In this document: piece after piece, positions 5,881 to 21,302 of the stretch
Layout: each line of letters begins with the position of its first letter
Numbering within the stretch: position 1 is the stretch's first letter
Assembly: GCA_041662125.1 (NCBI GenBank)
Contig: JBAZTA010000003.1
Span: 7,992-71,991 of the forward strand
Length of the DNA stretch: 64,000 bases
Direction of reading: 5' to 3'
From: Candidatus Omnitrophota bacterium
Lineage (GTDB): Bacteria; Omnitrophota; Gorgyraeia; Gygaellales; Profunditerraquicolaceae
Program-made: the position numbers and the translations under genes
Notes under the pieces: generated by a model
What the model was told of the DNA's origin: nothing
Databases searched by the model: none
Seen by the model: the letters and a program-made list of their open reading frames with translations, nothing else

Positions 5881-6753
5881 ATGGGTAAAAAGACTATAAA
5901 AAAGAGAAAGTTTGAACGAACAATGAAAAGAATCAGTGTTGGCATATTATTAGTAATGTTGCTTTTTGTTTTAGAGCCTGTTTTGAGGGGTAAAGATATC
6001 TTTGCTATCACTTATTTGGGAAATCCGATTTCCTATGAACAAAACAATCAAATGAGCGTAGAATTTACTCAAACTCCGATTAAGAAGACTTTTGCCCCGG
6101 AACCGAGCTCATTTTTACTCATTTTGGGCGGTATTGGCGGGATCATTATTAGTTTTGTCCGCAGAAGCTTTGATAAGATTAAAAGAGGTTTGGACCTTAT
6201 TTTGGCTATTATTGGTTTGATCATTGGTTCTCCATTACTTATTCTAGCTGCAATCTTTATTAAGATCGATTCCCGAGGGCCTATTGTATATCAACAGAAC
6301 AGAGTTGGCAGGCGCGGGAAGATCTTTAAGATATATAAGCTTAGGACAATGAGGTTGGATGCAGAAAAAGGGACCGGTGCTGTTTGGGCAAAAAGAAACG
6401 ATCCTCGTATTACCGAAATTGGCAAGTTCTTAAGAAAAACGAGAATTGATGAAATTCCTCAATTAATTAATGTTTTAAAGGGTGAAATGAGTATTGTTGG
6501 CCCTCGTCCGGAAAGGCCTGAAATGGTTGTGGATTTTAAGAAGCTTATTTGTGACTATGAGAAAAGGCTTATTGTTAAACCTGGTATAACCGGACTTTCC
6601 CAAATATATAATAGGTACGATGAAACAATAGCTGATGTTAGGAAAAAGGTTAAGTATGATCTTTTATATATAAGGAAAATGTGCTTGTGGGTAGAGATGC
6701 GGATTTTAGCTCAGACTGTCTTTGTTGTTTTTACAGGAAAAGGCGCTAATTAG
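5881..6753 (+). CDS. Bacterial sugar transferase (polyprenyl glycosylphosphotransferase, EpsB/WbaP-C family) with an N-terminal signal peptide and an internal PEP-CTERM-like segment
   Basis: The C-terminal 200 aa carry sugar-transferase motifs (KRGLDLILAIIGL..., DEIPQLINVLKGEMSIVGPRPE). Residues ~72-96 read APEPSSFLLILGGIGGIIISFVRRS, which is a PEP-CTERM signature: PEP, a TM stretch, then Arg-Arg. Confidence 0.8.
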   Translation: MGKKTIKKRKFERTMKRISVGILLVMLLFVLEPVLRGKDIFAITYLGNPISYEQNNQMSVEFTQTPIKKTFAPEPSSFLLILGGIGGIIISFVRRSFDKIKRGLDLILAIIGLIIGSPLLILAAIFIKIDSRGPIVYQQNRVGRRGKIFKIYKLRTMRLDAEKGTGAVWAKRNDPRITEIGKFLRKTRIDEIPQLINVLKGEMSIVGPRPERPEMVVDFKKLICDYEKRLIVKPGITGLSQIYNRYDETIADVRKKVKYDLLYIRKMCLWVEMRILAQTVFVVFTGKGAN

Positions 6754-6768
6754 AAAGGGAATGAAAAT

Positions 6769-7293
6769 ATGAAGAAATTATTAATAGCGTTATTGTTAGT
6801 TGTAGGAGTATTTGCTCTTTCCAAGTCTGCGTTCGCAATACCGTACGCTGATGTCATTAACTACAATTCTCTTATGACAATTGGAATGAGCCACACGTAT
6901 AATTTTAATCTCAATACTGATACTTTGCTCGATGGGGATATTAATGCTGAAGACCAAATTAATTCAGCTGCACTGGCAATTAGCTTTTTTGATGATGAGA
7001 CTGATACGTGGAGACCATCTACTTGGGAACTATCATTGATTGATGTCGATAGTGACCTATACTTATGGGATACTGGTACTTTTCAGGCTAATGTTTACAA
7101 TAGAGTGGTCAATGATCATCAGTTGGAAGTTACCGTTACTAGCTTGTGGGGTGATTTTAATTTAGGTAATGCTTCGTTATCTGGTGATTATACGAATTTG
7201 CCTACTACAGCTCCGGTTCCTGAACCGGCTTCATTGTCTCTTTTAGGTATTGGTTTGTTGGGTTTATTGGGTGGTTTACGAAGGATTAACTAG
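6769..7293 (+). CDS. PEP-CTERM sorting-domain secreted protein
   Basis: Signal peptide. C-terminus reads TTAPVPEPASLSLLGIGLLGLLGGLRRIN followed by stop. Confidence 0.88.
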   Translation: MKKLLIALLLVVGVFALSKSAFAIPYADVINYNSLMTIGMSHTYNFNLNTDTLLDGDINAEDQINSAALAISFFDDETDTWRPSTWELSLIDVDSDLYLWDTGTFQANVYNRVVNDHQLEVTVTSLWGDFNLGNASLSGDYTNLPTTAPVPEPASLSLLGIGLLGLLGGLRRIN

Positions 7294-7356: not shown

Positions 7357-7986
7357 GTGAAAAAAGTTATTTTTTTCTTAATTGCGGTTTCGTTTGTTTT
7401 AGGGCTAAACGCAAGTGCTTTTGCTCTTCCGTTTAGTTCTTTAGGTTGGGTTGATCCTAATTATAGCAATTCATGGGATCCTACTACGTCAACTGGTACT
7501 GCAAGGTACCATTTTGATTGGAGTGATCCAGATGTTAGCGTCACATCATTAGAGTTACAATTCGAAGGAGACATTTTTAATTTAAGTCTTCTCGATGCGA
7601 GTGATTTTAATGTAGTAGCGCCTCCATCATGGACTACGACAATGTGGATAGATAATGGAGTGTCTCATTGGGGAATTTCGAGTGGATTAGGAGTTGATTT
7701 TACTCAGTCACCAATAGTAGTTGATGTGAACTATACACTTCTTTCTTCTAGTCGTTATTCATTTGGAGATAGTACTTATGCTGGAGATCTTAATCAATGG
7801 GGATGGGATGAAGCTCAGGGGGCCAATAATGCTTGGTCGCAGAAATATGATTTAGTGGGTACTAGTATTTCGAGCGGCAGGTTGTATACAAGCCCTGGTT
7901 CAACAGCTCCAGTTCCAGAGCCAGCTACAATGTCGTTATTAGGGATAGGTATTTTGGGATTATTTGGTTTACGAAGAAAGTCCTAG
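7357..7986 (+). CDS. PEP-CTERM sorting-domain secreted protein
   Basis: Signal peptide. C-terminus reads STAPVPEPATMSLLGIGILGLFGLRRKS followed by stop. Confidence 0.88.
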   Translation: MKKVIFFLIAVSFVLGLNASAFALPFSSLGWVDPNYSNSWDPTTSTGTARYHFDWSDPDVSVTSLELQFEGDIFNLSLLDASDFNVVAPPSWTTTMWIDNGVSHWGISSGLGVDFTQSPIVVDVNYTLLSSSRYSFGDSTYAGDLNQWGWDEAQGANNAWSQKYDLVGTSISSGRLYTSPGSTAPVPEPATMSLLGIGILGLFGLRRKS

Positions 7987-8205: not shown

Positions 8206-9129
8206 ATGAATCCTCAGACCACTAAATTCCCTTCACTAAAGAAAGTATACAATAATACTTTTAGCTTCTTAAAACACAATAAGTTACTATTTATTCCCTT
8301 TATTATCTTTTCAATCCTTGAACTGCTCGCGTTGATTTTTATCTACATTTCTCCCCGTATGCCGTTTGTTATTGTTTTAGGACCGCCTATCAAAGCATTT
8401 TTTGGAGCGCAATTCTTGCATTATCCCATGAATTTTGTTTTAATTCCAAAATTAGCGGGTATCTCGCGAAGTGTTTTGTCGATATTAGTGGGGGCACTTT
8501 TAAGCGCGGTGGCAGTGCAAGTCATTTTTAATCTTTATGAGAAGAAAACGGTAAGGATGATCAATGTCTTTAAAGCGTTACTGAAGAAATATGCTTCTTT
8601 GTTTCTTGTCGTATTGGTCATAACTATAGTATTTCATGGAGCTTTACAATTACCCGCATTAGGTTTAAAGTCATATTTTCTCACCGGCCACAAAACACTC
8701 TTATTTTTAAAACCAGCCATGTGGTTTGGTTCGATTTTAGCAGGTATTAGTTTTATAATTTCAATCTTTGTTCAGGGTTGTTTTGCTTACGTGATCCCGG
8801 TTTTGGTGATTGAAAAAGTAAATCCCTTCAAAGCGCTCTTGAGATCATGCGGTTTATTCTTTAAGTCTTTCTTTCCAACCATTATGTTAGTCGGTATCCC
8901 CATGTTGGCGTATGTGCCAATTATTATTTTGCAGTATAATACGCTTTTCATCATAAATAAGTTTTACCCGGAATTAGTGTTGTTTGTTGCTTTGCTAAAT
9001 GTGTTGGTTACTTCTTTGTTTGTCGATGTATTGATCACTGTTTCTACAACTTTGTTTTACCTTACCTATAAAGATAACTTAACACAAGGTAAGAAAACGT
9101 TGAATATAGCTCAAGAGACGCAAAAATGA
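8206..9129 (+). CDS. Polytopic integral membrane protein, function unknown
   Basis: Roughly 8 predicted hydrophobic helices. No recognisable catalytic motif. Confidence 0.5.
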   Translation: MNPQTTKFPSLKKVYNNTFSFLKHNKLLFIPFIIFSILELLALIFIYISPRMPFVIVLGPPIKAFFGAQFLHYPMNFVLIPKLAGISRSVLSILVGALLSAVAVQVIFNLYEKKTVRMINVFKALLKKYASLFLVVLVITIVFHGALQLPALGLKSYFLTGHKTLLFLKPAMWFGSILAGISFIISIFVQGCFAYVIPVLVIEKVNPFKALLRSCGLFFKSFFPTIMLVGIPMLAYVPIIILQYNTLFIINKFYPELVLFVALLNVLVTSLFVDVLITVSTTLFYLTYKDNLTQGKKTLNIAQETQK

Positions 9130-9974
9130 AAAAAACATTGTTTTCTAAAATTGTTTTTATTTTTATGGTTGTCTTCCTGGTTGGATGTTCATCGAATGAT
9201 CAATATTCTGTTGAGAGAAAATACTGGAAGATCAAAAAGCTGGCGGAGAAAGTTTTTAAAAATCCGGTAGCAACTCCTCCAAACGAATTAGAGCGTGTTG
9301 TCAGCCGTTCTGAAGAATTCATTAAGGAATATGCGGCCAATCCCTTATCAATAGAAGCCTCTTTTAATATTGCTCGTTTATATATTGTAAAAGAAGAATA
9401 TGAATCGGCCCGTAAGCAATTGCAGAAGATACTTCAGGCAAATAAGAAGTCGCCGGTCATTTGTTCTGAAGCTCTGTTTTTAATCGGTAACGCCTATCAG
9501 TTGCAGGATAAATGGAGCTTGGCTTTAGAGCAGTATAAGAAGATCACCCGGGAATATCCGACTACGGTCAAGGCCCTTGATATACCTATATTTATTGCCC
9601 AGAATTATAAGGTTAAAAATCAACCTGAAAAAATGATCGTGGCGTATCAGGATGCAATAGGGCAATATAGGACGCTCATTGAAACGTATCCAAATTCTTT
9701 GTTAGCATTTAATGCCTATTTGTTAGTAGCTCAATGTCATATAGCTTTAAAAGATTGGCAAATGGCCGTTAAAACTTTTGAAACGGTCATTGAAAAGTTT
9801 AACGGTAAGGCAAAAATGGACGGGGCGATGTTTGAGATGGCGATTATATATGCCAAGCAATTAAAAGATACAGGGAAAGCTAAAGAAATACTTGATAGAT
9901 TGAACAAAGAGTATCCAAAGAGCAGGTATAGTAAAGTATCGTTGCTTTTAATTAAGGAGTTGGATAAACAATGA
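9126..9974 (+). CDS. TPR-repeat lipoprotein
   Basis: Lipobox FLVGCSS. Several TPR-like helical repeats. Overlaps its neighbours by 4 nt, so it is co-translated with the two-component system. Confidence 0.6.
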   Translation: MKKTLFSKIVFIFMVVFLVGCSSNDQYSVERKYWKIKKLAEKVFKNPVATPPNELERVVSRSEEFIKEYAANPLSIEASFNIARLYIVKEEYESARKQLQKILQANKKSPVICSEALFLIGNAYQLQDKWSLALEQYKKITREYPTTVKALDIPIFIAQNYKVKNQPEKMIVAYQDAIGQYRTLIETYPNSLLAFNAYLLVAQCHIALKDWQMAVKTFETVIEKFNGKAKMDGAMFEMAIIYAKQLKDTGKAKEILDRLNKEYPKSRYSKVSLLLIKELDKQ

Positions 9975-11179
9975 CAGAACTTCGGATATTAGAGAATAAA
10001 GATTCCGGCGGGATACTTAAGCATTTCTTAAGCAGGACGCTTAAAGAGATAATGTCAGTGGTGCACGCGGAACGCGGGTCTTTGTTTTTGTTTGATTGCG
10101 AGCATAAGGAACTTGTTTTAAACACTTTTTATGTGCCTGAAAATACTGCTTTAAAAGAACTTCGCCAGAGGCTAGGGGAAGGTATTGCCGGGAAAGTTGC
10201 TGATATTAAAATCCCTATTTTAGTAAAAGATATAAAATGCGATTCTCGTTTTAAGCAGAATGGGTTCAGCCATTATCAGACGAATTCATTTATGTCGATA
10301 CCAATTTTTACCTCTGAGCGGCTCTTGGGATTGATCAATTTAGCGGATAAATCAACGGGTGGGCATTTTTCAGAAGAAGACCTGAATTTAGCGGTGACGA
10401 TCTCAAAATACGCCTGCCTTGCCCTTGAAAGCTTGAATAGTTATACCGGATTGAAACAGGAAAAAGAGGCTTTAGACAAGCAGAAAGCGTTATTAGAAAA
10501 GTATGCTTCAGTAGGAAAGCTTGCCGCCGGTATCGTTCATCAGATCAATAATCCTCTTGACGGGGTTATCCGATACGCCAATATTCTGCTCGATCAGATG
10601 GAAGATAATTCCGCGACGAGGGAGTATCTTTTAGAAATTACCAAAGGGCTCAACCGTATTGCTAAGATCACTCGCTCGCTTTTGGAGTTTTCACGCCAGA
10701 TCAATTTAAGTACCTCACATCATAAACACTATGTTGATATCCATACTTTGATAGAGGAATCTTTAGATGTCTTTGGAGAAGTTATTGACGGTACTATTAA
10801 GATCGAGAAGAATTTTGTTGCTGATCTGCCGAAAATCCTGGATTTTGGGTTGTCCCATGTGATAATTAATATAATTGAAAACGCCTTGGATGTTATGCCT
10901 AAAGGAGGCGTTTTATCGATAGAAACCGCGCTTAAAGAGTCCTGGGTTGCTATTACGATCATGGATACAGGTTGCGGTATCCCTGAAGAGGTCTTAAAAC
11001 GGATCTTTGAGCCGTTTTTTACGACCAAAAGTATGGATAAAGGCACGGGGTTAGGCTTGGCGATCAGCCAGGAGATCATTAATAAGTACGGCGGGTCAAT
11101 TAAAGTGCAGAGCGTTGTTAAAAAGGGGAGTTCTTTTACCATTTTAATTCCGAAAACATTCTTAAAAAATGCTGAATAA
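9971..11179 (+). CDS. Cytoplasmic sensor histidine kinase (GAF-HisKA-HATPase_c)
   Basis: N-terminal GAF domain. H-box IVHQINNPLDG. N, G1 and G2 boxes (DTGCGIPEE, GTGLGLAI). Confidence 0.85.
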   Translation: MTELRILENKDSGGILKHFLSRTLKEIMSVVHAERGSLFLFDCEHKELVLNTFYVPENTALKELRQRLGEGIAGKVADIKIPILVKDIKCDSRFKQNGFSHYQTNSFMSIPIFTSERLLGLINLADKSTGGHFSEEDLNLAVTISKYACLALESLNSYTGLKQEKEALDKQKALLEKYASVGKLAAGIVHQINNPLDGVIRYANILLDQMEDNSATREYLLEITKGLNRIAKITRSLLEFSRQINLSTSHHKHYVDIHTLIEESLDVFGEVIDGTIKIEKNFVADLPKILDFGLSHVIINIIENALDVMPKGGVLSIETALKESWVAITIMDTGCGIPEEVLKRIFEPFFTTKSMDKGTGLGLAISQEIINKYGGSIKVQSVVKKGSSFTILIPKTFLKNAE

Positions 11180-12569
11180 CACAAATTTAAATAAAAACGG
11201 GCATATACTTGTTGTTGATGATGAGCCTTTAGTGCGCGGTTCTCTTACGGAACTCTTGACGCTTTCCGGTTATACTGTCAGCGCCGCAAATAACGGTAAA
11301 GAAGCGATCGATTTCTTGAAGAATTATACCGTTGATCTTGTGATAAGCGATATTAAAATGCCGGAAATAGATGGGACACAATTATTAAAACAAATTAAGA
11401 AAGATCATGCGGATACTCCGGTCATTATGATCACCGGGTATGGAAGTATTGAAAATGCGGTCGAAGCGGTAAAAGAAGGGGCGTATGATTATATCACCAA
11501 GCCTATCGTAGACAGCGAAATAAAGCTTGTTATTGAACGATTGTTGAAAGACCGCCAGCTTCATGAAGAAAACATTAAGCTTAAAGAACAATTGTCTATT
11601 TCACAAAGGACGCGTTTTCATAATATTGTCGGTAAAGATGAAAAAATGCAGAAAATTTATTCGTTGATCGAGGCTATTGCCAAAACGAGAGCGACTATTC
11701 TGATACAGGGAGAAAGCGGGACCGGCAAGCGTATGATCGCGCATGCGATACATAAATATAACGAAGTTGAGCGGGAAAAGCCTTTTGTTGAAGTAAGCTG
11801 TGGGGCTTTGACTGAAACTTTGCTTGAGGGCGAGCTTTTTGGCCATGTTAAAGGAGCTTTTACCGGAGCCATTAGAGACAGGATCGGGCGGTTTGAATTA
11901 GCCGATGGGGGGACGATATTCTTAGACGAAATCGACGCTTTTTCGCCGGCGTTACAGGTAAAATTATTACGGGTCCTGCAGGAAGGGGAGTTTGAGCGCG
12001 TTGGCGATACTAAGACTTTAAAGGTTGATGTGCGGGTGATTGCCGCGACAAATCAGAATCTCCAGGATTTGATCAGTAAAGGAACGTTTCGTATGGATTT
12101 ATACTACCGGTTAAATATTATTGCAATTGACCTTCCTCCCTTGCGGGAGCGAAGAAATGATATCCCGCTTTTGGCTGAAGATTTTATTCTGAAACACTCC
12201 CAGCATATCAACAAGAAAATTGAAGGGTTATCTGATGAGGCGTTGTCAATATTAAAAAGTTATCAGTGGCCCGGTAATGTCAGGGAATTAGAAAATGTCA
12301 TAGAGCGGGCGATCATTTTATCCCAGGGGCCGGTGATTACGCGTGAAGATCTGCCGGAATATTTGCATAAGCTCGGGAATACAAACCTGTTGACTTCTGA
12401 AGAAAACTATCTAAAATTAAGAGAAGCTTTAAAATCACCTGAGAAGGATTTAATAGTAAAAGCTCTTGAGTCGGTGAATTGGAGCCGTAATGATGCCGCC
12501 TCGGTGTTGGGGATCAATAGGACGACCTTATATAAAAAGATGTGTAAATATGGACTCTTAAAGAAATAA
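11169..12569 (+). CDS. Sigma-54-dependent response regulator (REC-AAA+-HTH, NtrC/PrsR-like)
   Basis: REC domain with phospho-Asp DIKMPEIDG. Walker A GESGTGKR. GAFTGA motif. C-terminal Fis-type HTH. Confidence 0.9.
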   Translation: MLNNTNLNKNGHILVVDDEPLVRGSLTELLTLSGYTVSAANNGKEAIDFLKNYTVDLVISDIKMPEIDGTQLLKQIKKDHADTPVIMITGYGSIENAVEAVKEGAYDYITKPIVDSEIKLVIERLLKDRQLHEENIKLKEQLSISQRTRFHNIVGKDEKMQKIYSLIEAIAKTRATILIQGESGTGKRMIAHAIHKYNEVEREKPFVEVSCGALTETLLEGELFGHVKGAFTGAIRDRIGRFELADGGTIFLDEIDAFSPALQVKLLRVLQEGEFERVGDTKTLKVDVRVIAATNQNLQDLISKGTFRMDLYYRLNIIAIDLPPLRERRNDIPLLAEDFILKHSQHINKKIEGLSDEALSILKSYQWPGNVRELENVIERAIILSQGPVITREDLPEYLHKLGNTNLLTSEENYLKLREALKSPEKDLIVKALESVNWSRNDAASVLGINRTTLYKKMCKYGLLKK

Positions 12570-12582: not shown

Positions 12583-13569
12583 ATGAATACAGATGAATTA
12601 GATATAAGAAGTATTATCGATATTAAGAAGTGGCAGCAAATTCAGGATAGTTTTTCCGCTATTACTGAATTGGGGTTACGTGTTGTCGATTCTAAAGGTA
12701 ACGCGCTTACTTTTTCCAGCGGTGAGCCCAGGCTTTGCAGGGAACTTTTGGATGACCCTGCCATTAAAAACCGGGTGTGCGGCAGGTGTTTGCCGACTTT
12801 CCTGGGGGGGAAAGGCGTTGTGGACAGAAATTTGAATTTTGTTACCTGCGCGGGCATGCATAATTGCATAGCCCCGTTGAAAGTAGATAATAAAGTGTTT
12901 GCGTATTTGGTGATGGGCCCGGTTATTTTGGTGAGGCGTAATGCAAAAGAACAATACAAATCGGCTGCTGAAGAATTGGGTTTAGACCTGGATGATCTCT
13001 GGAATGCTTTATTGGAAATAAAGGTTGTTTCTTTTAATTGGGCGCAGTCATTGGTAGAATTTATCAGGGATATTTATGAATATGTCCTTAAACTGGCATA
13101 TCAGGCAAGGTTTAAGAGTAAAGATGTAGTTTCAGTTGATATATTGAAACTCAACCGTATATTAGAGGTTTTACTTGACGCTGCTTTTCAGATCAGCGGC
13201 GCTGATATTGGATCGGTGATGTTTCTTGATGAAAGTAAGAATAAGCTTACTATCCGCGCCTCAAAAGGGCTTTCTGATGAGGTGGTCAGGACTACCAATA
13301 TCGGGTTAGAAGAGGGGGTTTCCGGCATTGCGTTAAAAGAGAAAGCGTCTCTGTTAATCGATGATAACCTCAAAGATAATAGGGTGAAACGGTATCTGCA
13401 CCGTCCGTATATCAGTTCTTCGATGATCATTCCGATCAAGATCAAAAGTGAGATGCAGGGGGTTATTAATTTAGGGACTTTAGCGAGTTCGTCAGTCAAG
13501 TTTAATCTGAGTAGTATGAATTTGATCAATAGGATCGTTGATTTGGCAAGTGTGGCATTGCATTCGTAG
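12583..13569 (+). CDS. Sensory protein with PocR-like N-terminal domain and C-terminal GAF domain
   Basis: N-terminal Cys/His-rich PocR-like segment (CRELL..CGRC..CAGMHNCIAP). C-terminal GAF-like region. No output domain. Confidence 0.45.
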   Translation: MNTDELDIRSIIDIKKWQQIQDSFSAITELGLRVVDSKGNALTFSSGEPRLCRELLDDPAIKNRVCGRCLPTFLGGKGVVDRNLNFVTCAGMHNCIAPLKVDNKVFAYLVMGPVILVRRNAKEQYKSAAEELGLDLDDLWNALLEIKVVSFNWAQSLVEFIRDIYEYVLKLAYQARFKSKDVVSVDILKLNRILEVLLDAAFQISGADIGSVMFLDESKNKLTIRASKGLSDEVVRTTNIGLEEGVSGIALKEKASLLIDDNLKDNRVKRYLHRPYISSSMIIPIKIKSEMQGVINLGTLASSSVKFNLSSMNLINRIVDLASVALHS

Positions 13570-13593: not shown

Positions 13594-13727
13594 AAGACCC
13601 GGTCTTGGCTGTAATTTAAAAATACCAGTTAAGACCGGGTCTTTTTGCGTATAAGACCGGGACTTGAATTGTAGTATTTTATCATTGATAAGTCCCGGTC
13701 TTGAAATGTGATTCAGACCGGGTCTTA
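13594..13727. repeat. REP-like palindromic repeat cluster, copy B (three hairpins)
   Basis: AAGACCCGGTCTT...AAGACCGGGTCTT, AAGACCGGGACTT...AAGTCCCGGTCTT, CAGACCGGGTCTTAG. Sits between convergent genes and abuts the rpoN stop. Confidence 0.7.
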
Positions 13728-15065
13728 GCGTTCTTTTCGGAAAGTTGAAGAGAGGATCTTAAGTTCTTCGCGGTATTTTGCGACAGTGCGCCTGGCGAGG
13801 TTTAAGTTATCTTCACTAGAGAGGATCTTTACTATATCCTGGTCGCTTAATGGTTGTTTTTTGTTTTCTTTGTCGATTAATTCTTTAATGCGGCTTTTAA
13901 CTACGGTTGAAGAGATAGATTCGCCGTTTTTATGATGGATGTGGCTTGAGAAGAAATTCTTAAGCGCGATAACCCCGCAGGGAGTTTTCGCGTATTTGTT
14001 CATTACTACCCGGCAAACGGTAGATTCGTGTAAGTCAAGTTTGTCGGCGATCTCTTTGAAGGTGAGCGGCTTCATTTGAGAGAGGTCTTCCCGTATTGCT
14101 TCTCCTTGGATCTCGGTGATCGTATTGACTACCCTGCGTAACGTGCTTTTCCTTTTTTCAATGGCTTTTATCAGTTCAAGGGCTTTACGTAATTTATTGG
14201 TGATGAATTCTCTGGTTTTCGGGTCAAGATCCTCTTTTTTAAGCAGATCTTTGTATAGTTTACTGACAGTCAGGCGAGGGATATATTCATGGTTTATAAT
14301 TATTTCGAATCCATCGCTTTTTTCTTCGATGAGGATGTCGGGGACGATTCTGTGAGCTTCATCAAGGGAATAATTCCGTCCCGGTTTCGGGTTTAATTTC
14401 ATGATCTTTTTAATTGATACTTCGATCTTCTCCAGCGGTTCTTTTAATACTTTCGAAATATGGTTATAGTTTTTTTTGGCAATGTCGTCAAGATGGTGCA
14501 GGCAGATCGCTTTTGTGAGAGGATCGAGTTCATTCAATAATTTTAATTGTATGAGTAAACATTCAGAAATGGTCCTGGCGCCCACGCCTGAGGGCTCAAA
14601 TTGTTGTATTAAGGAAAGCACTTTTTCGATCTTTGCCTCTGAAGCGTGTATTTGAACAGCCATTCCTTCCGTCGAAGATTGTAAATATCCATTTTCGTCT
14701 ATATTCCCGATAATTTCCTGGCCTATTTTAAGCTCTTCGTCTGAATTGGTAAACATGCCTAATTGCCGCAATAAGACATCTTGAAGAGATACTTTGTTCA
14801 TCAAAAGAGACGTGTTGGTTTCGTTATCTTGAGTTTGGGTATTATTGGGTAATGAAGGAGGAGAGTTTAATCTTGCAAGATCTTCCGGTGAAAGAGGGGA
14901 GGTGATCTCTTCTTGAGAAGAAAATTCCTCCAGAACAGGGTTAGTAAGAAGTTCTTCTTCTACCACTTGGTTTAGGTCTAGCAGATGCAGCGTTAAGATG
15001 TTTAACGATTGCCGCATTTCGGGAGCTAAAACCCGCCTGAATTCGAACCTTTGTCTTAATTCCAT
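13725..15065 (-). CDS. rpoN: RNA polymerase sigma-54 factor
   Basis: Acidic/Gln-rich region, core-binding domain, and the C-terminal RpoN box ARRTVAKYRE. Confidence 0.9.
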   Translation of the reverse strand: MELRQRFEFRRVLAPEMRQSLNILTLHLLDLNQVVEEELLTNPVLEEFSSQEEITSPLSPEDLARLNSPPSLPNNTQTQDNETNTSLLMNKVSLQDVLLRQLGMFTNSDEELKIGQEIIGNIDENGYLQSSTEGMAVQIHASEAKIEKVLSLIQQFEPSGVGARTISECLLIQLKLLNELDPLTKAICLHHLDDIAKKNYNHISKVLKEPLEKIEVSIKKIMKLNPKPGRNYSLDEAHRIVPDILIEEKSDGFEIIINHEYIPRLTVSKLYKDLLKKEDLDPKTREFITNKLRKALELIKAIEKRKSTLRRVVNTITEIQGEAIREDLSQMKPLTFKEIADKLDLHESTVCRVVMNKYAKTPCGVIALKNFFSSHIHHKNGESISSTVVKSRIKELIDKENKKQPLSDQDIVKILSSEDNLNLARRTVAKYREELKILSSTFRKER

Positions 15066-15148
15066 TTAATAAGTATAGCATAAAATGTGCCAATTTGCCT
15101 GTTTTGGGGGTATTTTTATAGGAAAGGCGGGTGTGCGGCTTACTGCGT

Positions 15149-15282
15149 CAAGACCCGGTCTTGGCTGTAAATAAGCATACCTGTCAGTGTCATTGCGAGG
15201 AGCCGAAGGCGACGAAGCAATCTTTTTAAAGATTGCTTCGCCCCTACGGGGCTCGCAATGACACGAGCAAGACCGGGTCTTA
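15149..15282. repeat. REP-like repeat copy C with a nested 74-nt compound hairpin
   Basis: Outer arms are CAAGACCCGGTCTT / AAGACCGGGTCTT. The inner unit GTCATTGCGAG...CTCGCAATGAC encloses GAAGCAATCTTtttaAAGATTGCTTC. Confidence 0.65.
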
Positions 15283-15311
15283 TTGACAGTCGTAGTAATC
15301 CATGTTAGTAT
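15283..15311 (+). promoter_or_regulatory. Sigma-70-like promoter TTGACA-N17-TAGTAT
   Basis: Consensus -35 with a 17-nt spacer, about 25 bp upstream of the GTG start at 15334. An AAGGAG RBS lies at ~15323. Confidence 0.4.
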
Positions 15312-15333
15312 AAACACTAATAAGGAGTTATGA

Positions 15334-16068
15334 GTGCATAAAGAAACCATAGGACATAGTGAATTTACCTTTAAGTTTGTTGAAGAACCTGTTTTAATGG
15401 ATCAGGTCTACCGCCTGCGTTTTCAGGTATATTGCGAAGAATGCAAGTTTATTAGAGAAGAAGAATACCCTGATAACCGCGAACAGGATAAATATGACCA
15501 GTACGCGCTTCATTTTGTCGTGGAAGACAACTTTGAAGTAATCGGCACTATGCGGCTGATCCTTGATTCTTCTGTAGGCTTTCCGATCGAAGAGCGCTGT
15601 GGTGCTGACTTAAAATTCGATAAAAAAAGTGTAGCCCGCAATAAGATAGCGGAGATCTCCCGCCTTGTTATCAGTAAAGATTATCGGCGTAGAAAAGACG
15701 ATGGGTTGTATTATACTCCTGAATTTGATGAGAAATCTCTCCTGGGGAATTCGAATAATCCTTTTCGCCGGATCAGGACTATGACCTTTGGGATGTATCG
15801 CGAACTATATCATGAAAGCAAACGTCGGGGCCTGACGCATTGGTACGCGCTCATGGAGAAATCATTGTGGAAATTATTGGACTTGAATGGGTTTACTTTT
15901 AAGCCTATCGGCCAAGAAATTGATTATTATGGTGTGGTGACCCCGTATATTGGAGTTATTGAAGAAATCGAGCGGGAATTTTATAAGAAGTATCCGCAGT
16001 TCTTTACTAAGTTTTTTCTTGATGGTTTAGAAACCCAATTTCATCCGGAATTCCTTTCTTCTGCATAA
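15334..16068 (+). CDS. GNAT-fold N-acyl amino acid synthase-like acyltransferase (FeeM / autoinducer-synthase-like; exosortase-system-associated type)
   Basis: About 240 aa. Sequence pattern FTFKFVEEP...YRLRFQVYCEEC...GTMRLILD...EISRLVISKDYRR is typical of long-chain N-acyl amino acid synthases. It sits directly upstream of an acyl-activating enzyme. Confidence 0.5.
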   Translation: MHKETIGHSEFTFKFVEEPVLMDQVYRLRFQVYCEECKFIREEEYPDNREQDKYDQYALHFVVEDNFEVIGTMRLILDSSVGFPIEERCGADLKFDKKSVARNKIAEISRLVISKDYRRRKDDGLYYTPEFDEKSLLGNSNNPFRRIRTMTFGMYRELYHESKRRGLTHWYALMEKSLWKLLDLNGFTFKPIGQEIDYYGVVTPYIGVIEEIEREFYKKYPQFFTKFFLDGLETQFHPEFLSSA

Positions 16069-16073
16069 AAAAT

Positions 16074-18767
16074 ATGGCTCAAAACCGCCTCAGTATATTT
16101 GAGGAATTTGCTCAAGTAGCCAAAACGTATCCTTCCAAAACAGCTGTTTTCTTTAAAAATAATAATGATTATTCTGAAGTATCGTACCTTGAGATCTATC
16201 AAAAAGCGCTAAAGCTAGGTAATTTCCTGATCCATTGGGGTGTGCAGAAATCCGATAGGATCGCCATTTTAATTGGTAACCAGCTTGAGTGGCCGGTATC
16301 TTTTTTTGCGGTACAGTTTGCGGGTGCGGTTGCGGTGCCTATTGATGTTCGCCTGCCAGCTCCTGACATTACCCAGTTGGTAATACATTCTTCTTCGAAA
16401 ATAATTCTCTGCGCAGAGAAAGTCTACGCTCAAAATACCGCGTTCCTGGACGGTTTAAAAAGTGTCAAAATACTGCTCATTGATTCGGTTTCTTTTCAGG
16501 AACAGTTTGTCAATTATTCTCTCAAGATGCAGGAAGCGCCGGTTTTCAGGGCTCTGGATACTGTTGCAGCTATGTTTTATACCTCCGGTACAACAGCCCT
16601 TCCTAAAGCAGTCATGCTCTCGCAGGTTAATCTTTTAGCCAATGTAGAATCGATACGAAAAATAAAAATAGTGACTCATCAGGATTGTTTAATTTCATTT
16701 CTGCCGCTTCATCATACCTATTCATGCATGGTCACCTGTTTGGTGCCGCTTCTTTTAGGCGCGCAGATCAGTTATCCGGCAAGTTTAAATTCTGATGATC
16801 TGCTGAATTGTATGCAAGAGACAAAAGTGAGTATTTTAGTCGGGGTGCCGCAATTCTTCTCAATTTTCCATAAAGCTATAAAACAAAAGTTTAAGAAGAT
16901 CCCTTTGCTTCTCAGGGCCGGAATAAATGTTTTGATCTGGATATTGTGGGTTTTTCGTAAATTAACAGGTGTTAATTTGAATAAATACCTGCTGCACAAA
17001 ATGCATTCCGTGTTCGGGAATAAATTGCGTTTTATGACTACAGGCGGTGCTAAGATTGAAACAACGATAATAGTTGATTTTTTCAAATGGGGATTTACGA
17101 TCTTAGAAGGGTACGGGTTGACGGAAACGTCTCCCGTGGTTACGTTTAATCCTCCTCTTAAGCCAAAAATCGGCACTGTCGGTAAGCCAATACCCGGAGT
17201 ACAGGTAAAGATATTAAATCCCGATGAGCAGGGGGTAGGTAAAGTTGCTATTCGTGGTGAGAATGTCATGTTGGGGTATTATCAGTTGCCTCAAGAGAAT
17301 GCGCGGGTGCTTAAAGATGGATGGTTTTTGACAGAAGATCTCGGGTATTTTGATAAAAGCGGCTACCTTTGTATTAAGGGCAGGAAAGATGAAATTATTG
17401 TCTTAAGCTCAGGAAAGAAGATAAACCCGGAAGAGATCGAACGGGAGTACCTTTTAAGCCCCTATATTAAAGAAATATGTGTTTTTGTTGCTTCGCGGGT
17501 AGGTTTTATTGGTGAGGCAAAGCAGTTGATGGCAGTAATTGTCCCTCATGAAGAATATTTCACCGCCCGGGGAGTACTCAATATTGAAGAAAAAATACGC
17601 TGGGAATTAGATAATTTATCCCATCAGATAAGTCATTATAAGCGTGTTACCGGTATTATTATCAGTAAAGAAAAGCTTCCGCGCACCGCATTAGGCAAGA
17701 TCATGCGCCATAAAATAGAAGAAAAATATGTTCAAGAGGGAGGTGGGGTTTTTCAGAATGGGAAGGGGGGGAGACTCAGTGAAGATGTGAGCTCATTCTC
17801 TTCGGAAATTTCCAAGAAAATACTTGAACAGATATCAAAGCGGCTTAATCGAAATGTTAAGTTGGATGATCATTTAGAGTTGGATCTAGGGCTTGATTCT
17901 TTGGGCAGGATCGAATTGCTTTTGGAGCTTTTCAAGTTTCTGAATATCCAGGCTTCAGAGTCAATACAGTCAGAATTCTTTTTCGCTCATACTATAAGAG
18001 ATTTACTGCTTAAACTGGAGCCTTTTATACCGCAGGATGTCAAATATGGCAATCAGGATGAGTTTTTATGGTCAGAAACTCTTCATGAGCGGCCATCTTC
18101 GAAAACTTTGAATATGGTAAGGTTTAAGCCGTTTTTTATTGATAAAATTGCGGCGTTACTTGTTATTACTATTGTGCGGTATGTCTTACGGGTATTTTTT
18201 CTTCTTTCAATTAAAGGCCGGGGAAATCTTCCCAAAAACGGGCCGTATATAGTTTTCGCGAATCATTCCAGTTATTTGGATGGTTTTGTTATAGCCGCAC
18301 TATTGCCGTTTCATGTGCTGCTTAAAACATATTTTGTAGGGTTAAAACGGATTTTCTTGAAGCCTTTTATCAGGGATTCGATTAAATTAGCGAGGTTAAT
18401 TCCTATAGATGTGACTTTGGACCTGGTTGAGGCAATGCGCATATGCGCCTATTTATTGGCTCAAAAGAAAATAGTCAGCTTTTTCCCTGAGGGCCAGCGT
18501 AACCCGGAAGGAGGAGTGATCAGGTTTAAGAAAGGTATAGGGATCTTAGCTAAGGAGCTCAATATTCCGCTGGTACCAGTTTATATTGATGGTACATTTC
18601 AAGCCTGGCCGAGGCACGCGAAATTGCCGCGTTTTCACGCGATAAAAGTTACAATTGGGAAACCCCTGAGTTATGCTGAATTAGTAAGTCAAAAGGTACT
18701 TAAAAGCGATGATTATGACGCGGTTGCCGAAGCTTTGCGGCAGGAGTTGCTTGCGTTGAAGAAATAG
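16074..18767 (+). CDS. Tri-domain fusion: AMP-dependent acyl-CoA/acyl-ACP ligase + acyl-carrier (phosphopantetheine) domain + PlsC-type lysophospholipid acyltransferase
   Basis: AMP-binding motifs (YTSGTTALPKAVMLSQ, TEDLGYFDKSGYLCIKGRKDE). ACP Ser motif LDLGLDSLGRIELL at ~17890. PlsC HX4D motif NHSSYLDG at ~18257 and FPEGQRN. Confidence 0.8.
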   Translation: MAQNRLSIFEEFAQVAKTYPSKTAVFFKNNNDYSEVSYLEIYQKALKLGNFLIHWGVQKSDRIAILIGNQLEWPVSFFAVQFAGAVAVPIDVRLPAPDITQLVIHSSSKIILCAEKVYAQNTAFLDGLKSVKILLIDSVSFQEQFVNYSLKMQEAPVFRALDTVAAMFYTSGTTALPKAVMLSQVNLLANVESIRKIKIVTHQDCLISFLPLHHTYSCMVTCLVPLLLGAQISYPASLNSDDLLNCMQETKVSILVGVPQFFSIFHKAIKQKFKKIPLLLRAGINVLIWILWVFRKLTGVNLNKYLLHKMHSVFGNKLRFMTTGGAKIETTIIVDFFKWGFTILEGYGLTETSPVVTFNPPLKPKIGTVGKPIPGVQVKILNPDEQGVGKVAIRGENVMLGYYQLPQENARVLKDGWFLTEDLGYFDKSGYLCIKGRKDEIIVLSSGKKINPEEIEREYLLSPYIKEICVFVASRVGFIGEAKQLMAVIVPHEEYFTARGVLNIEEKIRWELDNLSHQISHYKRVTGIIISKEKLPRTALGKIMRHKIEEKYVQEGGGVFQNGKGGRLSEDVSSFSSEISKKILEQISKRLNRNVKLDDHLELDLGLDSLGRIELLLELFKFLNIQASESIQSEFFFAHTIRDLLLKLEPFIPQDVKYGNQDEFLWSETLHERPSSKTLNMVRFKPFFIDKIAALLVITIVRYVLRVFFLLSIKGRGNLPKNGPYIVFANHSSYLDGFVIAALLPFHVLLKTYFVGLKRIFLKPFIRDSIKLARLIPIDVTLDLVEAMRICAYLLAQKKIVSFFPEGQRNPEGGVIRFKKGIGILAKELNIPLVPVYIDGTFQAWPRHAKLPRFHAIKVTIGKPLSYAELVSQKVLKSDDYDAVAEALRQELLALKK

Positions 18768-18775
18768 ATAGTTTT

Positions 18776-18845
18776 AAGACCCGGTCTTGGCTGTAATTAA
18801 AAACTACCTGTTAAGACCGGGTCTTGTTAGTAAGACCGGGACTTA
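18776..18845. repeat. REP-like repeat copy D
   Basis: AAGACCCGGTCTTGGCTGTAATTAAAAACTACCTGTTAAGACCGGGTCTT followed by TAAGACCGGGACTT. Confidence 0.7.
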
Positions 18846-18857: not shown

Positions 18858-19700
18858 ATGCAAAAATTATCTGACTTAACTAAAGATATATTAATAGGGT
18901 TATATATAAACTCAAGGAGTTCTCTTGCTGACATAGCAGCAATTTATGGGGTTTCTCGGACAGCCATTTACAAAAAACTTAAAGAATACGGCATTAAATT
19001 GCGTTCGAAATCAGAGGCAAGGATTGAAGCGCAAAAACAAGACAAATTGCCACAAAAGTTCTTTGATATAAATGATGATTTCTTTTCGAAATGGGCACCA
19101 GAGATGGCATATGTCTTAGGTTTGATTATAACGGATGGATGTGTGTCTATGGCTGGTACAGTTTCTTTATGTATTAATGATAAAGAATTACTTGAAAAAG
19201 TTAAGAAAGTTATGGGGTCTGAGCATAAAATTGAGCTGTCGAAACACCAAAAAGGCTTATATTATTTTCGCTTTTCAAGAGAAAAATTAGTCAAGGATTT
19301 GGAGAAATTATGTGTTGTGCCTAGAAAAAGTCTTATTGTTAAATTTCCTGATGTGCCAAAAGAACACTTACCTGATTTTATTAGAGGAGTGTTTGATGGT
19401 GATGGCAGCGTATTTTTTGATAAACGACGGCCAAAATTTCCTTTAAGATCGAAGTTTGTGAGCAGTTCAGAGGTTTTTATAGTAGAATTACAAGTAGCAC
19501 TTGAAGGCTTAGGTATGCCTAAACGGACGATTTATAAACAAAAAACAAAGAATGGTTGGAGTTATATGATTATTTATGATCATAAAAATAGCATAGATTT
19601 ATTTAATTTACTATATAGTAATGTTAAAAATTGTCTATATTTAGAGCGAAAACATCAATGTTTCTTGGAGGGGTTAGATATGTCTAAAAGGATTTTATAA
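18858..19700 (+). CDS. Free-standing double-motif LAGLIDADG homing-endonuclease-like protein with N-terminal HTH
   Basis: Two LAGLIDADG motifs (AYVLGLIITDGCVS, FIRGVFDGDGSVFF). N-terminal sigma-70 region-4-like HTH (LADIAAIYGVSRTAIYKKLKEYGI). The gene is markedly AT-rich compared with its neighbours. Confidence 0.75.
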   Translation: MQKLSDLTKDILIGLYINSRSSLADIAAIYGVSRTAIYKKLKEYGIKLRSKSEARIEAQKQDKLPQKFFDINDDFFSKWAPEMAYVLGLIITDGCVSMAGTVSLCINDKELLEKVKKVMGSEHKIELSKHQKGLYYFRFSREKLVKDLEKLCVVPRKSLIVKFPDVPKEHLPDFIRGVFDGDGSVFFDKRRPKFPLRSKFVSSSEVFIVELQVALEGLGMPKRTIYKQKTKNGWSYMIIYDHKNSIDLFNLLYSNVKNCLYLERKHQCFLEGLDMSKRIL

Positions 19701-19907
19701 ATGGATAAAGAACTTGAAGATTGGTATATGTTACACAAATTTCATTTTTATGCCGGTAATTATGAAACTAAAGATTTAGCTGCTTTTTTAGGTATTAACT
19801 CGCGGACAATCCAGAGATGGATTAAAGAGACGACCAAGCCAACCAAAGACCAATTAGCCAAAATCAAAACGTATTTGGACCAAAAGAAGCAAAAAGATTC
19901 ATTATAA
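19701..19907 (+). CDS. Small HTH protein (68 aa)
   Basis: LAAFLGINSRTIQRWIKE helix-turn-helix. Its start abuts the stop of the LAGLIDADG gene. Confidence 0.4.
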   Translation: MDKELEDWYMLHKFHFYAGNYETKDLAAFLGINSRTIQRWIKETTKPTKDQLAKIKTYLDQKKQKDSL

Positions 19908-20153
19908 ACAAGGCTTTATTTTGTTTTTCTATATGTCGCACTAGTGCCTATAATATATCTTATGTTAACTTGAGAATATTGCTGAACTGTGTTCAACATG
20001 TTGTTGAATAAAGGTTTACAATCATTGTTATTTCCTTGTGGATAAGCCATGTTGGACTTACTTCTGTTTACTTAGATTTATGTGGTTTTCTTATGATTAA
20101 CATTGGTAAGCAGATTATACGGTGTTTTGTTCTTAGGTTGCTTTTGTAGGTTA

Positions 20154-21302
20154 TTATGCTATTTTTCTGGAAAGAGTAATTACTGCGGGAATAATGCTGC
20201 CTTCGCCAAGTTTGGTATTGATTTTATCCATGGCTTTGATCAATGCCTCCCTTCTTTTTTGTTCGGTAAATAGAGGGGGGTAATCTGGGGTATGTAATGA
20301 GCTGCAGGTTATCCCTAATGCCCGTACAAGGGCCGGTCTTGGGGCTATTTTGACCATTATTCTTAAAGTTCGGGCATATATTTCATACCCATCATTGGTT
20401 GCTTGTTCCTGGGTTCTTTGTGCCATAAGATTGCCGATTTCCGGGCCGTTTAACCATAGATGTGTGGTTTGGCTGGTGAGGTTTTTTTGCCGTAATCTTT
20501 CCGCTACCATTTCAGATAAAAGCCGTAACCAGGATTTTATAAACCGGGGGGTTTTTGATGCTCTTGGTAAGGTGTATGAATGGCCTATTGATTGCGGGGC
20601 CTCTTCTTTGATCTCTTGGCTGAAATGTTCAGTTGCATGTAATGCGGCATAGAGATTAAGCCCGTTTTTTCCTGAAAAACGTTGCAAGAAATCAGGTGTT
20701 TTTTCGTATAGATCAAGGCAGGTTTGAATGCCTAAACTATTAAAGGATGTCTGTGATTTCTTACCGACACCGCAGAGCTTTTGAACTGGGGTTTGAGCCA
20801 GGGCCTGAGTCAGGTTTTTTTCGGTTAATATGGCTATACCGTTTGGTTTCTTAAGTTTTGAGGCTAATTTAGCTAAAATGCAATTCTTGGCTATGCCGAT
20901 CGATGCGGTAATGTGAAATCTGTCTTCTATTTGTTTTTGTATGGTTTTGGCTAAAATAAACGGCTGGGGTTCTTTGTCTATGTCCATGCGAAATTCGTCA
21001 ATCGATGCGTAGGATACTTCAAATCCGTAGGTTTTTACCATTTCAAAGATCTGTTCCGATGTCCAGATATATTTACTTTGTTCCGCGGGGACAAATTCTA
21101 GGTTTGGGCATAATTGATACGCGTCTTTTGAAGCCATGCCAGAGCTGATACCGTACGCTTTGGCTTCATAGCTTGCAGCGCAAACAACGGTGTACATTTT
21201 ATTGTTTCTTGAGCCGACAATTAATGGTTTGCCTTTTAGCCGGGGATTGATCGCTTGTTCTATGGATGCGAAAAACGCGTCCATGTCAATATGGAGAATC
21301 AT
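20154..21302 (-). CDS. dinB: Y-family translesion DNA polymerase (DinB/UmuC-like)
   Basis: MILHIDMDAFFASIEQ and SIDEFRMD catalytic acidic motifs. Little-finger region. Last gene of a lexA operon. Confidence 0.85.
   Translation of the reverse strand: MILHIDMDAFFASIEQAINPRLKGKPLIVGSRNNKMYTVVCAASYEAKAYGISSGMASKDAYQLCPNLEFVPAEQSKYIWTSEQIFEMVKTYGFEVSYASIDEFRMDIDKEPQPFILAKTIQKQIEDRFHITASIGIAKNCILAKLASKLKKPNGIAILTEKNLTQALAQTPVQKLCGVGKKSQTSFNSLGIQTCLDLYEKTPDFLQRFSGKNGLNLYAALHATEHFSQEIKEEAPQSIGHSYTLPRASKTPRFIKSWLRLLSEMVAERLRQKNLTSQTTHLWLNGPEIGNLMAQRTQEQATNDGYEIYARTLRIMVKIAPRPALVRALGITCSSLHTPDYPPLFTEQKRREALIKAMDKINTKLGEGSIIPAVITLSRKIA

Follow-up and report, generated by a model that had tools for sequence, protein, structure and literature searches.

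What would a synthase of N-acyl amino acids in an exosortase locus have to do with a neighbour that joins a fatty-acid-activating domain, an acyl carrier and an acyltransferase in one polypeptide? The question is raised by a 64-kb stretch of Candidatus Omnitrophota DNA (64,000 nucleotides of contig JBAZTA010000003.1, from the metagenome-assembled genome of an uncultured bacterium; hereafter the window), in which the gene for a GNAT-type protein is followed by the gene for such a fusion, here called the tri-domain protein. To our knowledge, no explanation has been given since 2011 for the co-occurrence of N-acyl amino acid synthases with exosortases. Apparently new here is that the fusion gene is fixed directly after the GNAT gene in one Omnitrophota clade, inside an exosortase module; this fixed pairing is a variation on a known theme. 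The lipid or other acceptor to which exosortases attach their substrates is still undefined in the literature, and the answer that we tentatively favour is that the two enzymes share a pathway to an acylated membrane lipid. An earlier reading of the window, called the original prediction below, had singled out the same two genes, and its claims are taken up with the results that bear on them.

The gene pair and its synthase half

Both open reading frames (ORFs) were verified on the + strand, the GNAT first and the tri-domain protein second, and their coordinates (Table 1) agree with the original prediction of a GNAT gene followed 5 nt later by that of an 897-aa protein. The intergenic gap is the pentanucleotide AAAAT, and the tri-domain gene has no separate Shine-Dalgarno sequence; because of these two features, the arrangement is compatible with translational coupling of the genes. 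In relatives, the corresponding gap was 3-33 nt. The large protein was 100% identical to NCBI entry MFA6217025.1, encoded on a 395-kb contig, and public annotation describes it merely as 'AMP-binding protein' or 'long-chain acyl-CoA synthetase'.

The GNAT matched the model of exosortase-associated acyltransferases, TIGR03694, with 189.9 bits (cutoff 111.95), over model positions 8-231 of 241, and the Pfam family FeeM (PF21926) with 43.2 bits (cutoff 27). It also matched Acetyltransf_5 (63 bits), and its score on the ordinary Acetyltransf_1 was 17.6 bits, under the 20.7 cutoff. The protein therefore groups with the FeeM-like N-acyl amino acid synthases, as had been proposed for it, and not with ordinary acetyltransferases. 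The genomic setting that goes with TIGR03694 was present as well, since exosortase, EpsI and PEP-CTERM proteins are all encoded within ~11 kb of the GNAT gene, and the GNATs of relatives likewise pass this model. Similarity to solved structures was weak: the best phmmer match in PDB was an acyl-homoserine lactone synthase (E=3e-3), and FeeM was not among the PDB matches. The GNAT half is not a discovery, because it already bears the names 'PEP-CTERM/exosortase system-associated acyltransferase' in NCBI (MFA6217024.1) and 'N-acyl amino acid synthase of PEP-CTERM/exosortase system' in JGI, and because the link between such synthases and the exosortase system reportedly goes back to a 2011 paper of Craig, Cherry and Brady.

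Conservation of the pair in one clade

For the synteny analysis, nine relatives of the tri-domain protein with 42-54% identity were taken together with the window, giving ten clade members (the loci fetched bear L numbers). A TIGR03694 GNAT gene was found directly upstream of the tri-domain gene in seven of the nine relatives, five of which have two such genes, and the adjacency is thus present in 8/10 clade members (the window, L001, L002/L003, L085, L086, L087, L088 and L090). Downstream of the pair, these relatives carry genes for a membrane protein, a TPR protein, a GAF-kinase, a sigma-54 regulator and a PocR-GAF protein, and rpoN on the minus strand closes the module in L088 and L090. Exosortase or EpsI genes, together with PEP-CTERM genes, lay directly upstream of the pair in L085 and L088, and PEP-CTERM genes were near it in L086 and L090; in the window, the exosortase gene is ~10 kb upstream. 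In a neighbour-joining tree without bootstrap, the eight linked proteins and two unlinked ones (L084 and L004) formed one clade, apart from another Omnitrophota/Planctomycetia clade and from other phyla, and a GNAT neighbour was absent from all ~20 full-length loci outside this clade. Judged from gene order, the predicted tie between the pair and the exosortase system is real, but specific to one clade. A search of the available literature on Omnitrophota plus exosortase gave nothing relevant.

The window differs from L085, L087, L088 and L090 in gene order. There, the order is GNAT, tri-domain protein, membrane protein, TPR protein, kinase, regulator, PocR protein and rpoN on the minus strand; in the window, the GNAT and tri-domain genes come after rpoN, on the far side of the regulatory block, and the two genes therefore moved as a unit. 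This bears on the alternative that the genes have no functional link and that their adjacency is a historical accident kept by shared descent in one clade. The sampled genomes all belong to a single phylum, the arrangement has been lost in two clade members, and the window itself is a case in which the pair changed its place with respect to the module, all as such an accident would allow. Nevertheless, we regard it as very unlikely: the arrangement is kept at only 42-48% protein identity while the flanking genes vary (ABC transporter modules, a second GNAT, exosortase present or absent), and both genes were relocated together.

Among these variable surroundings is a divergent module beside the GNAT gene of relatives (L001 948-4842, L002 1784-7138, L086 2815-8192 and L090 1757-7553). 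It encodes a PaaK/F390-synthetase-like ligase (weak matches), a protein of unknown function, a MacB-type ABC transporter with ABC_tran and FtsX/MacB_PCD domains, and a LolA-like protein resembling TP_0789; a second TIGR03694 paralogue is often present. Neither this ABC/LolA-like module nor a second copy of the GNAT or tri-domain gene was found in the 64-kb window.

Domains of the tri-domain protein

The ligase, carrier and acyltransferase that had been read into one polypeptide were all supported (Table 1). In the domain search, AMP-binding and PF01553 were matched and TIGR03694 was passed by the GNAT, but the carrier fell just short of PF00550, with 20.7 bits against a cutoff of 20.8 (residues 582-630). 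For the adenylation domain, the top Foldseek matches were acyl-, malonyl- and oxalyl-CoA ligases, and A-PCP didomain structures aligned with the protein over 690-800 columns. The adenylation motifs (YTSGTT..PK, GYGLTE and Lys542) and PlsC motifs I and III (NHxxxxD and FPEGxR) were invariant in relatives. The NHSSYLDG motif, announced at about 18257, was present slightly further on, and the serine of the DSL motif, announced at about 17898, is exactly Ser609 of LGLDSLGR.

We accept the carrier domain as real despite its borderline Pfam score, because conservation, homologues, structures and the model agree. The motif D599-H-x-ELDLG-x-DSL-x-R-x-E was invariant across 12 relatives at 42-54% identity, ELDLGxDSL was kept in 31/32 full-length relatives from about ten phyla, and most homologues have precomputed PF00550 matches. 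The isolated region matched the acyl carrier protein model TIGR00517 with E=2.6e-4, and a phmmer search of PDB returned acyl carrier proteins (NDUFAB1, E=1e-3) in addition to the PlsC structure 5KYM (E=8.5e-10). In agreement, the AlphaFold model (mean pLDDT 80) contained a four-helix bundle at residues 578-651, with helices at 578-591, 609-623, 629-636 and 641-651 and Ser609 at the N-terminus of the second.

A built-in carrier allows for a reading in which the adenylation and carrier domains serve as a dedicated donor, presenting a particular and possibly exogenous fatty acid to the GNAT as FeeL does for FeeM; the PlsC domain would then be secondary or have an editing function. Such a role is compatible with the other readings. 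N-acyl amino acid synthases use acyl-acyl carrier protein (ACP) as donor, the paper on the FeeM structure points by its title to acyl carrier protein binding, the two genes are tightly coupled and the carrier motif is invariant. Against this, the PlsC catalytic motifs are kept as strictly as the carrier motif, and the transferase is therefore under selection and not vestigial; TIGR03694 enzymes are reported to be functional with the host ACP in Escherichia coli; and most family members have no GNAT partner. We consider the donor role unlikely as the explanation of the pair.

Between the carrier and the acyltransferase core runs a long hydrophobic helix (residues 688-709), which is presumed to be a membrane-interface anchor by analogy with the N-terminal two-helix motif of PlsC. 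The motif III Arg of the PlsC domain was conserved throughout the family, and no clade-specific substitution was found in the PlsC motifs; the only clade-specific residue in the whole protein was Trp339, which adjoins the A5 motif of the adenylation domain. This invariant residue, the order GNAT, adenylation, carrier and acyltransferase of genes and domains, and the resemblance in shape between the amphiphilic N-acyl amino acids and fatty acids would suit a colinear scheme. In this scheme, the substrate of the adenylation domain would be the N-acyl amino acid, activated at its free carboxylate, in place of a plain fatty acid; Ser609 would carry it, and the PlsC domain would esterify the entire N-acyl-aminoacyl unit onto a hydroxyl of a lipid or polysaccharide-lipid. 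The adenylation domain is, however, of the ordinary long-chain fatty-acid ligase type, and the family is widespread without a GNAT, so that we hold this scheme to be highly improbable.

A widespread and uncharacterised architecture

A first homologue search gave at least 120 full-length homologues with the same Pfam composition. When the carrier-PlsC half was searched exhaustively, at least 256 representatives of 50%-identity clusters were obtained at E<=1e-30; among the best 150 of these 256, 72 are proteins of 830-960 aa with the module at the C-terminus, and the longest has 1115 aa. Stand-alone carrier-PlsC proteins of ~340 aa also exist (P0209 and P0242), and P0221 has a second PlsC domain. 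In species-level genomes, full-length copies were found in Omnitrophota, Planctomycetia, Methylomirabilota, Nitrospirota, Desulfobacterota, Spirochaetota, Ignavibacteriota, Fusobacteriota, Acidobacteriota, Wallbacteria and Geobacter. The fusion had been called unusual in the original prediction, and this claim did not survive: the carrier-PlsC module is present in at least 256 clusters, full-length copies span about ten phyla, and the architecture is mentioned in the literature on ElbD, which describes homologues that lack a reductase domain, from anaerobes and other phyla, as well as split forms whose adenylation domain, ACP and acyltransferase (A-ACP-AT) make up an ORF of their own. No characterised member of the reductase-less, A-ACP-PlsC type turned up in the literature. 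Collectively, the fusion is a widespread, uncharacterised architecture, with a logic related to those of Aas and ElbD.

Two loci outside the clade deserve mention. In a sister-clade Omnitrophota locus (L089, 1684-5234), a 485-aa protein with PP-binding and Acyltransferase domains is encoded beside a fusion of glycosyltransferase and alpha/beta-hydrolase; both genes are upstream of the tri-domain gene, and a PEP-CTERM/ice-binding protein is encoded downstream. L005 (JAIWAR010000031.1) comes from a metagenome-assembled genome assigned to a 'Methanosarcinales archaeon' and has a bacterial-type pair of MFS and tri-domain genes. Its tri-domain protein groups with Omnitrophota homologues in the tree, and the assignment is probably a binning error.

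The shared A-ACP-AT order, and the reported ElbD homologues that are split or lack the reductase (FAR) domain in anaerobes and other phyla, raise the possibility of ether-lipid synthesis as in Myxococcus xanthus. Nonetheless, the protein has no FAR/NAD-binding domain; its gene has the GNAT gene and one for a LAGLIDADG/HTH protein as immediate neighbours, with no elbB- or elbE-type genes among the window ORFs scanned; and none of the best 150 carrier-PlsC relatives is of ElbD-like length. Such a function is scarcely credible here. A true ElbD was also sought among the fetched loci. The candidate from Myxococcaceae (L077) was a 743-aa ORF, too short and with the adenylation half only, and those from Poribacteria and Acidobacteriota (L029, L032, L035, L040, L047 and L051) were ORFs of 600-620 aa, again with the adenylation half only and not ElbD-like.

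The breadth of the family also bears on another reading, repair or salvage of the Aas type, in which the tri-domain protein would activate a free fatty acid and re-acylate a lysophospholipid (lysophosphatidylethanolamine, lysophosphatidylglycerol or lysophosphatidic acid) via its built-in carrier, its place beside the GNAT gene reflecting shared regulation or acyl supply and not a shared product. Taken alone, the PlsC domain scored best on two Aas-type models of acyl-[ACP]-phospholipid O-acyltransferases, with 81 bits for PRK08633 and 65 bits for PRK06814, followed by AGP_acyltrn (63.5 bits), with ~18 bits on OlsA models, and the full protein gave 231 and 206 bits on the same two Aas-type models. 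The family-wide motif III Arg is in line with this, as is the occurrence in many phyla and unrelated contexts, which is expected of a general lipid enzyme. Moreover, in three loci of the other Omnitrophota/Planctomycetia clade (L005, L007 and L008), an MFS transporter gene directly upstream of the tri-domain gene recalls lplT-aas, and Aas itself makes acyl-ACP and then uses it as acyl donor for lysophospholipids. On the other side, the three MFS neighbours had generic MFS matches only and no match to the LplT model, every Aas equivalog cutoff was missed widely (for PRK08633, the cutoff is 1221 bits), and the domains stand in reverse order. None of the 25 best NCBIfam matches to the tri-domain protein, out of 115, attained its cutoff. 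We rank this re-acylation second, as a close competitor of the pathway set out below, and regard it as doubtful.

A proposed two-step pathway

Ranked first is the coupled aminolipid pathway, which we put forward as a tentative explanation that still falls short of probable. The GNAT and tri-domain genes would be one operon of the exosortase/PEP-CTERM locus and would build an acylated membrane lipid in two steps. In the first, the GNAT would acylate an amino acid at its amino group, with an acyl carrier thioester as donor of the long fatty acyl chain and an N-acyl amino acid as product; the profile matches place the GNAT in the synthase family, and its activity would be that published for family members. 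In the second, the ANL domain would adenylate a free long-chain fatty acid, the chain would be loaded onto the phosphopantetheine arm at the protein's own Ser609, and the PlsC-type domain, with His731/Asp736, would transfer it to a lipid acceptor by forming an ester with one of the acceptor's hydroxyls, while helix 688-709 would keep this domain at the membrane face. The observed domains, motifs and fold are those given above, and this chemistry would be that of the ANL, ACP and LPLAT families. In support, ACS and ACP activity in vitro is on record for the homologous pair of domains in ElbD. The acceptor would be the GNAT product or its hydroxylated form, on the model of the OlsB/OlsA and GlsB/GlsA logic of ornithine, glutamine and glycine lipids, and the product a two-chain aminolipid, made with the PEP-CTERM proteins under the adjacent TPR, kinase and sigma-54 regulators. 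The embedded carrier may double as acyl donor for the GNAT. We favour the GNAT product as acceptor because an N-acyltransferase and a PlsC-type O-acyltransferase fit this logic and because their genes are operon-coupled across a deep clade.

Several observations weigh against the aminolipid pathway. The PlsC domain reached 81 and 65 bits on Aas-type phospholipid acyltransferase models, as opposed to ~18 on OlsA. The family occurs in about ten phyla without an adjacent GNAT, and the ancestral acceptor was therefore probably not the GNAT product. The PlsC motifs underwent no clade-specific change, with the motif III Arg kept throughout and Trp339 alone specific to the clade; this carries little weight, because OlsA-type enzymes retain the PlsC motifs anyway. 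Two of the ten clade members (L084 and L004) have no adjacent GNAT gene, and in the window rpoN, on the opposite strand, separates the pair from the module's other genes. For no family member has a lipid product, a transcript or an enzyme activity been recorded. Lastly, no phosphopantetheinyl transferase was found in a scan of all but a few ORFs of the window, to which this search was confined. When further lipid genes were sought among the window ORFs, only accB and accC were found. Fatty-acid auxotrophy of Omnitrophota was considered as a rationale and was unsupported, the pathways being reported as generally complete and accBC being present.

As to the product, a role as lipid signal or anchor is hypothesised. 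A bolder extension of the aminolipid pathway, which we consider decidedly unlikely, is that the GNAT, the tri-domain enzyme and the CysZ/choline-transporter-like protein make the lipid to which the exosortase attaches cleaved PEP-CTERM proteins. One candidate for this lipid would be an aminolipid of two chains whose free amine or hydroxyl serves as the nucleophile. There would be parallels in the lipid attachment by archaeosortase ArtA and in the proposed attachment to a phosphoethanolamine lipid by rhombosortase. If true, this would account for N-acyl amino acid synthases tracking exosortases across bacteria.

The conserved pairing suggests that the exosortase system depends on a made-to-order membrane lipid. 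With a self-sufficient acyl-transfer enzyme fixed beside the synthase in one lineage, the question of the acceptor becomes directly testable, and the pairing points to candidate partners, namely the transporter-fold membrane protein and, in relatives, the ABC and LolA-like export module. Beyond this clade, the A-ACP-PlsC family is the logical 'all-in-one Aas', and hundreds of genomes would be better annotated if the function of a single member were defined.

Repeats, promoter-like sites and other features of the window

The palindrome AAGACCSGGTCTT was matched 17 times in the window, against 0.04 matches expected, in intergenic clusters at ~5.5, 13.6, 15.2, 18.8 and 48 kb and in a lone copy with one mismatch at 60.8 kb. 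It is a dispersed element resembling repetitive extragenic palindromic (REP) sequences and is not specific to the gene pair. The REP-like repeats that had been noted on both sides of the pair are thus real, but they also occupy other intergenic regions; the idea that they delimit a mobile unit specific to the pair was rejected, given clusters of the same repeat in four other intergenic regions and the isolated copy. Clusters were found at the three junctions of the rearranged segment (13594-13726, 15150-15281 and 18776-18844), which may point to repeat-mediated rearrangement of the gene order. The element between rpoN and the GNAT gene has an inner palindrome, GTCATTGCGAGGAGCCGAAGGCGACGAAGCAATC...GATTGCTTCGCC, and its DNA fold has an energy of -49.8 kcal/mol (z = -10.9); this hairpin explains a spurious 94-aa ORF at 15066-15350 on the minus strand. 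A 1083-aa ORF without a Pfam match (48206-51457, +) is preceded by four copies of the palindrome at 47911-48078.

A sigma-70 promoter of its own had also been ascribed to the pair. The match upstream of the GNAT gene, with a -35 hexamer that overlaps the 3' end of the hairpin element, agrees with the consensus at 10/12 positions, but it stands as a consensus match only, since promoter-like sites were not in excess in the region (6, versus 8.8 +/- 3.3 in shuffled sequence). No sigma-54 promoter scoring >=9 was found on the + strand upstream of the GNAT operon. Window-wide, sigma-54-type sites numbered 15, against 11.2 +/- 3.1 in shuffles, which is no excess. The best two -24/-12 matches of the window were TGGCACATTTTATGCT (15077-15092, -), ~12 nt upstream of the start codon of rpoN, and TGGCATGGATAATGCT (5820-5835, +), 45 nt upstream of the priming glycosyltransferase gene.

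The exosortase locus of the window is complete (Table 1). The exosortase itself passed only the general model TIGR02602 and missed the subtype models XrtA (179 bits versus 208), XrtW (176 versus 425) and XrtD (175 versus 400), so that it is unclassified as to subtype. The genes upstream of it that resemble type II secretion system (T2SS) and type IV pilus (T4P) components may provide an outer-membrane export route for the PEP-CTERM proteins. In L088, it is at the module's other end, after rpoN, that T2SS E and F genes are found (18873-20703). Directly after the tri-domain gene and its repeat cluster, the window encodes a 280-aa homing-endonuclease-like protein (18858-19700, +), which has an HTH at its N-terminus and two LAGLIDADG_3 stretches; the genes that come next, dinB and lexA, are on the opposite strand. 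Further away, a c-di-GMP-I-GGC riboswitch aptamer was matched with 62.3 bits (51601-51682, +; gathering score 59). Downstream of it are two small ORFs, 51763-52035 (90 aa) and 52097-52429 (110 aa; hydrophobic at its N-terminus), next to the gene for a 930-aa SdrD/CarboxypepD_reg-repeat protein on the other strand.

Table 1. Features of the gene pair, the tri-domain protein and the exosortase locus, with positions in the window (res, residues of the tri-domain protein).
Feature	Position	Strand	Remarks
GNAT ORF	15334-16068	+	244 aa; GTG start; AAGGAG Shine-Dalgarno sequence 5 nt upstream
AAGGAG ribosome-binding site of GNAT gene	15323-15328	+	read from the sequence
Tri-domain ORF	16074-18767	+	897 aa; adenylation, acyl carrier and PlsC/LPLAT acyltransferase domains
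ANL adenylation domain	16107-17738	+	res 12-555; PF00501, 261 bits (res 12-403); PF23562 AMP-binding_C_3, 34 bits (res 439-555)
Adenylation motifs	YTSGTTALPK 16578-16607; GYGLTE 17109-17126; catalytic Lys542 within 17691-17708	+	sequence
Acyl carrier domain	17805-18026	+	res 578-651; phosphopantetheine-attachment Ser609 at 17898-17900
Long hydrophobic helix before acyltransferase core	18135-18200	+	res 688-709, FIDKIAALLVITIVRYVLRVFF; AlphaFold helix
PlsC/LPLAT acyltransferase core	18210-18587	+	res 713-838; PF01553, 84 bits
PlsC motifs	motif I NHSSYLDG 18261-18284; motif III FPEGQR 18483-18500	+	sequence
Nested palindromic REP/MITE-like element, 135 nt	15148-15283	.	between rpoN and GNAT gene; outer arms are AAGACCSGGTCTT
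Sigma-70-like promoter match TTGACA-17-TAGTAT, TG extension	15283-15311	+	10/12 consensus matches; predicted
Three copies of the AAGACCSGGTCTT repeat	18774-18844	.	directly after the tri-domain stop codon
T2SS/T4P-like secretin, GspC-like and GspE/PilB-like genes	71-4072	+	directly upstream of exosortase gene
Exosortase	4084-4896	+	TIGR02602, 162.9 bits (cutoff 105.6)
EpsI	4898-5518	+	TIGR02914, 88 bits (cutoff 42.8)
Polyprenyl glycosylphosphotransferase (priming glycosyltransferase)	5881-6753	+	profile match
Two PEP-CTERM proteins	6769-7293, 7357-7986	+	TIGR02595, 20.9 and 25.0 bits (cutoff 16)
Polytopic membrane protein, CysZ/choline-transporter-like fold	8206-9129	+	conserved; directly downstream of the tri-domain gene in relatives
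TPR protein	9126-9974	+	regulatory block; PrsT analogue
Histidine kinase	9971-11179	+	regulatory block; PrsK analogue
Sigma-54 response regulator	11169-12569	+	PrsR analogue; PEP_resp_reg TIGR02915, 416 bits (cutoff 503)
PocR/GAF sensor	12583-13569	+	end of regulatory block
rpoN (sigma-54)	13725-15065	-	TIGR02395, 393 bits (cutoff 277); divergent from GNAT operon

Comparison with known systems

Close in design is Aas of E. coli, which likewise combines an ANL fatty-acid-activating domain and a PlsC-type HX4D transferase in one chain and works with an acyl carrier thioester as donor. The order is the reverse, as the original prediction had stated: in the Aas model NF005959, the transferase occupies positions 2-140 and the ligase 479-619, whereas the ligase comes first in the tri-domain protein, which reached 149 bits on this equivalog model (cutoff 886). 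Aas uses free holo-ACP, whereas the tri-domain protein has its carrier built in. The lysophospholipid flippase LplT is a partner of Aas, and no MFS gene stands beside the pair in the window.

ElbD of M. xanthus (UniProt Q1DC43) shares the order A-ACP-acyltransferase, as given for it in the literature, where its acyl-CoA synthetase and ACP activities have been demonstrated in vitro. In contrast to the reductase-A-ACP-acyltransferase layout of ElbD, no FAR Pfam domain is present in the tri-domain protein, and, unlike elbD with its operon partners, its gene stands in an exosortase/N-acyl amino acid synthase context with none of them.

In the OlsB/OlsA, GlsB/GlsA and OlsF systems, too, a gene for a GNAT- or autoinducer-synthase-like N-acyltransferase lies beside a gene for a PF01553 O-acyltransferase, and the second enzyme of this two-step aminolipid logic has a PF01553 domain and PlsC motifs (PMC11631085). 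The similarity does not extend to the family models, as the GNAT scored 14 bits on OlsB (cutoffs 320-350) and the PlsC domain 18.5 bits on OlsA (cutoff 300). Unlike the tri-domain protein, the O-acyltransferases of known aminolipid pathways have no fatty-acid activation or carrier domain.

The regulatory block resembles PrsK/PrsR/PrsT (Haft 2006), in which genes for a TPR protein, a histidine kinase and a sigma-54 response regulator likewise stand together beside exosortase/PEP-CTERM genes. All three window proteins were below the equivalog cutoffs, and, by its TIGR02915 score under the cutoff, the sigma-54 regulator counts as a relative of PrsR and not as an equivalog. Further differences are the GAF domains in the kinase of relatives, the PocR/GAF protein and rpoN attached here, and a GNAT operon with no sigma-54 promoter-like site upstream.

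Acyl activation and carriage are genomically linked to an exosortase in Proteobacteria as well, where TIGR03098, the acyl-CoA ligase associated with the exosortase A (type 1) system, is accompanied by separate genes for a carrier and a PLP decarboxylase. Those functions are spread over separate genes with a decarboxylase, whereas a single chain with a PlsC domain and no decarboxylase is found here; TIGR03098 was not among the 25 best of the 115 NCBIfam matches to the tri-domain protein and hence scores below 139.6 bits. Finally, compared with the known N-acyl amino acid synthases of exosortase systems, the GNAT falls under the same curated model and lies in the same type of locus, with exosortase, EpsI and PEP-CTERM genes; the sole additions are Omnitrophota as the host phylum and the fixed partner gene.

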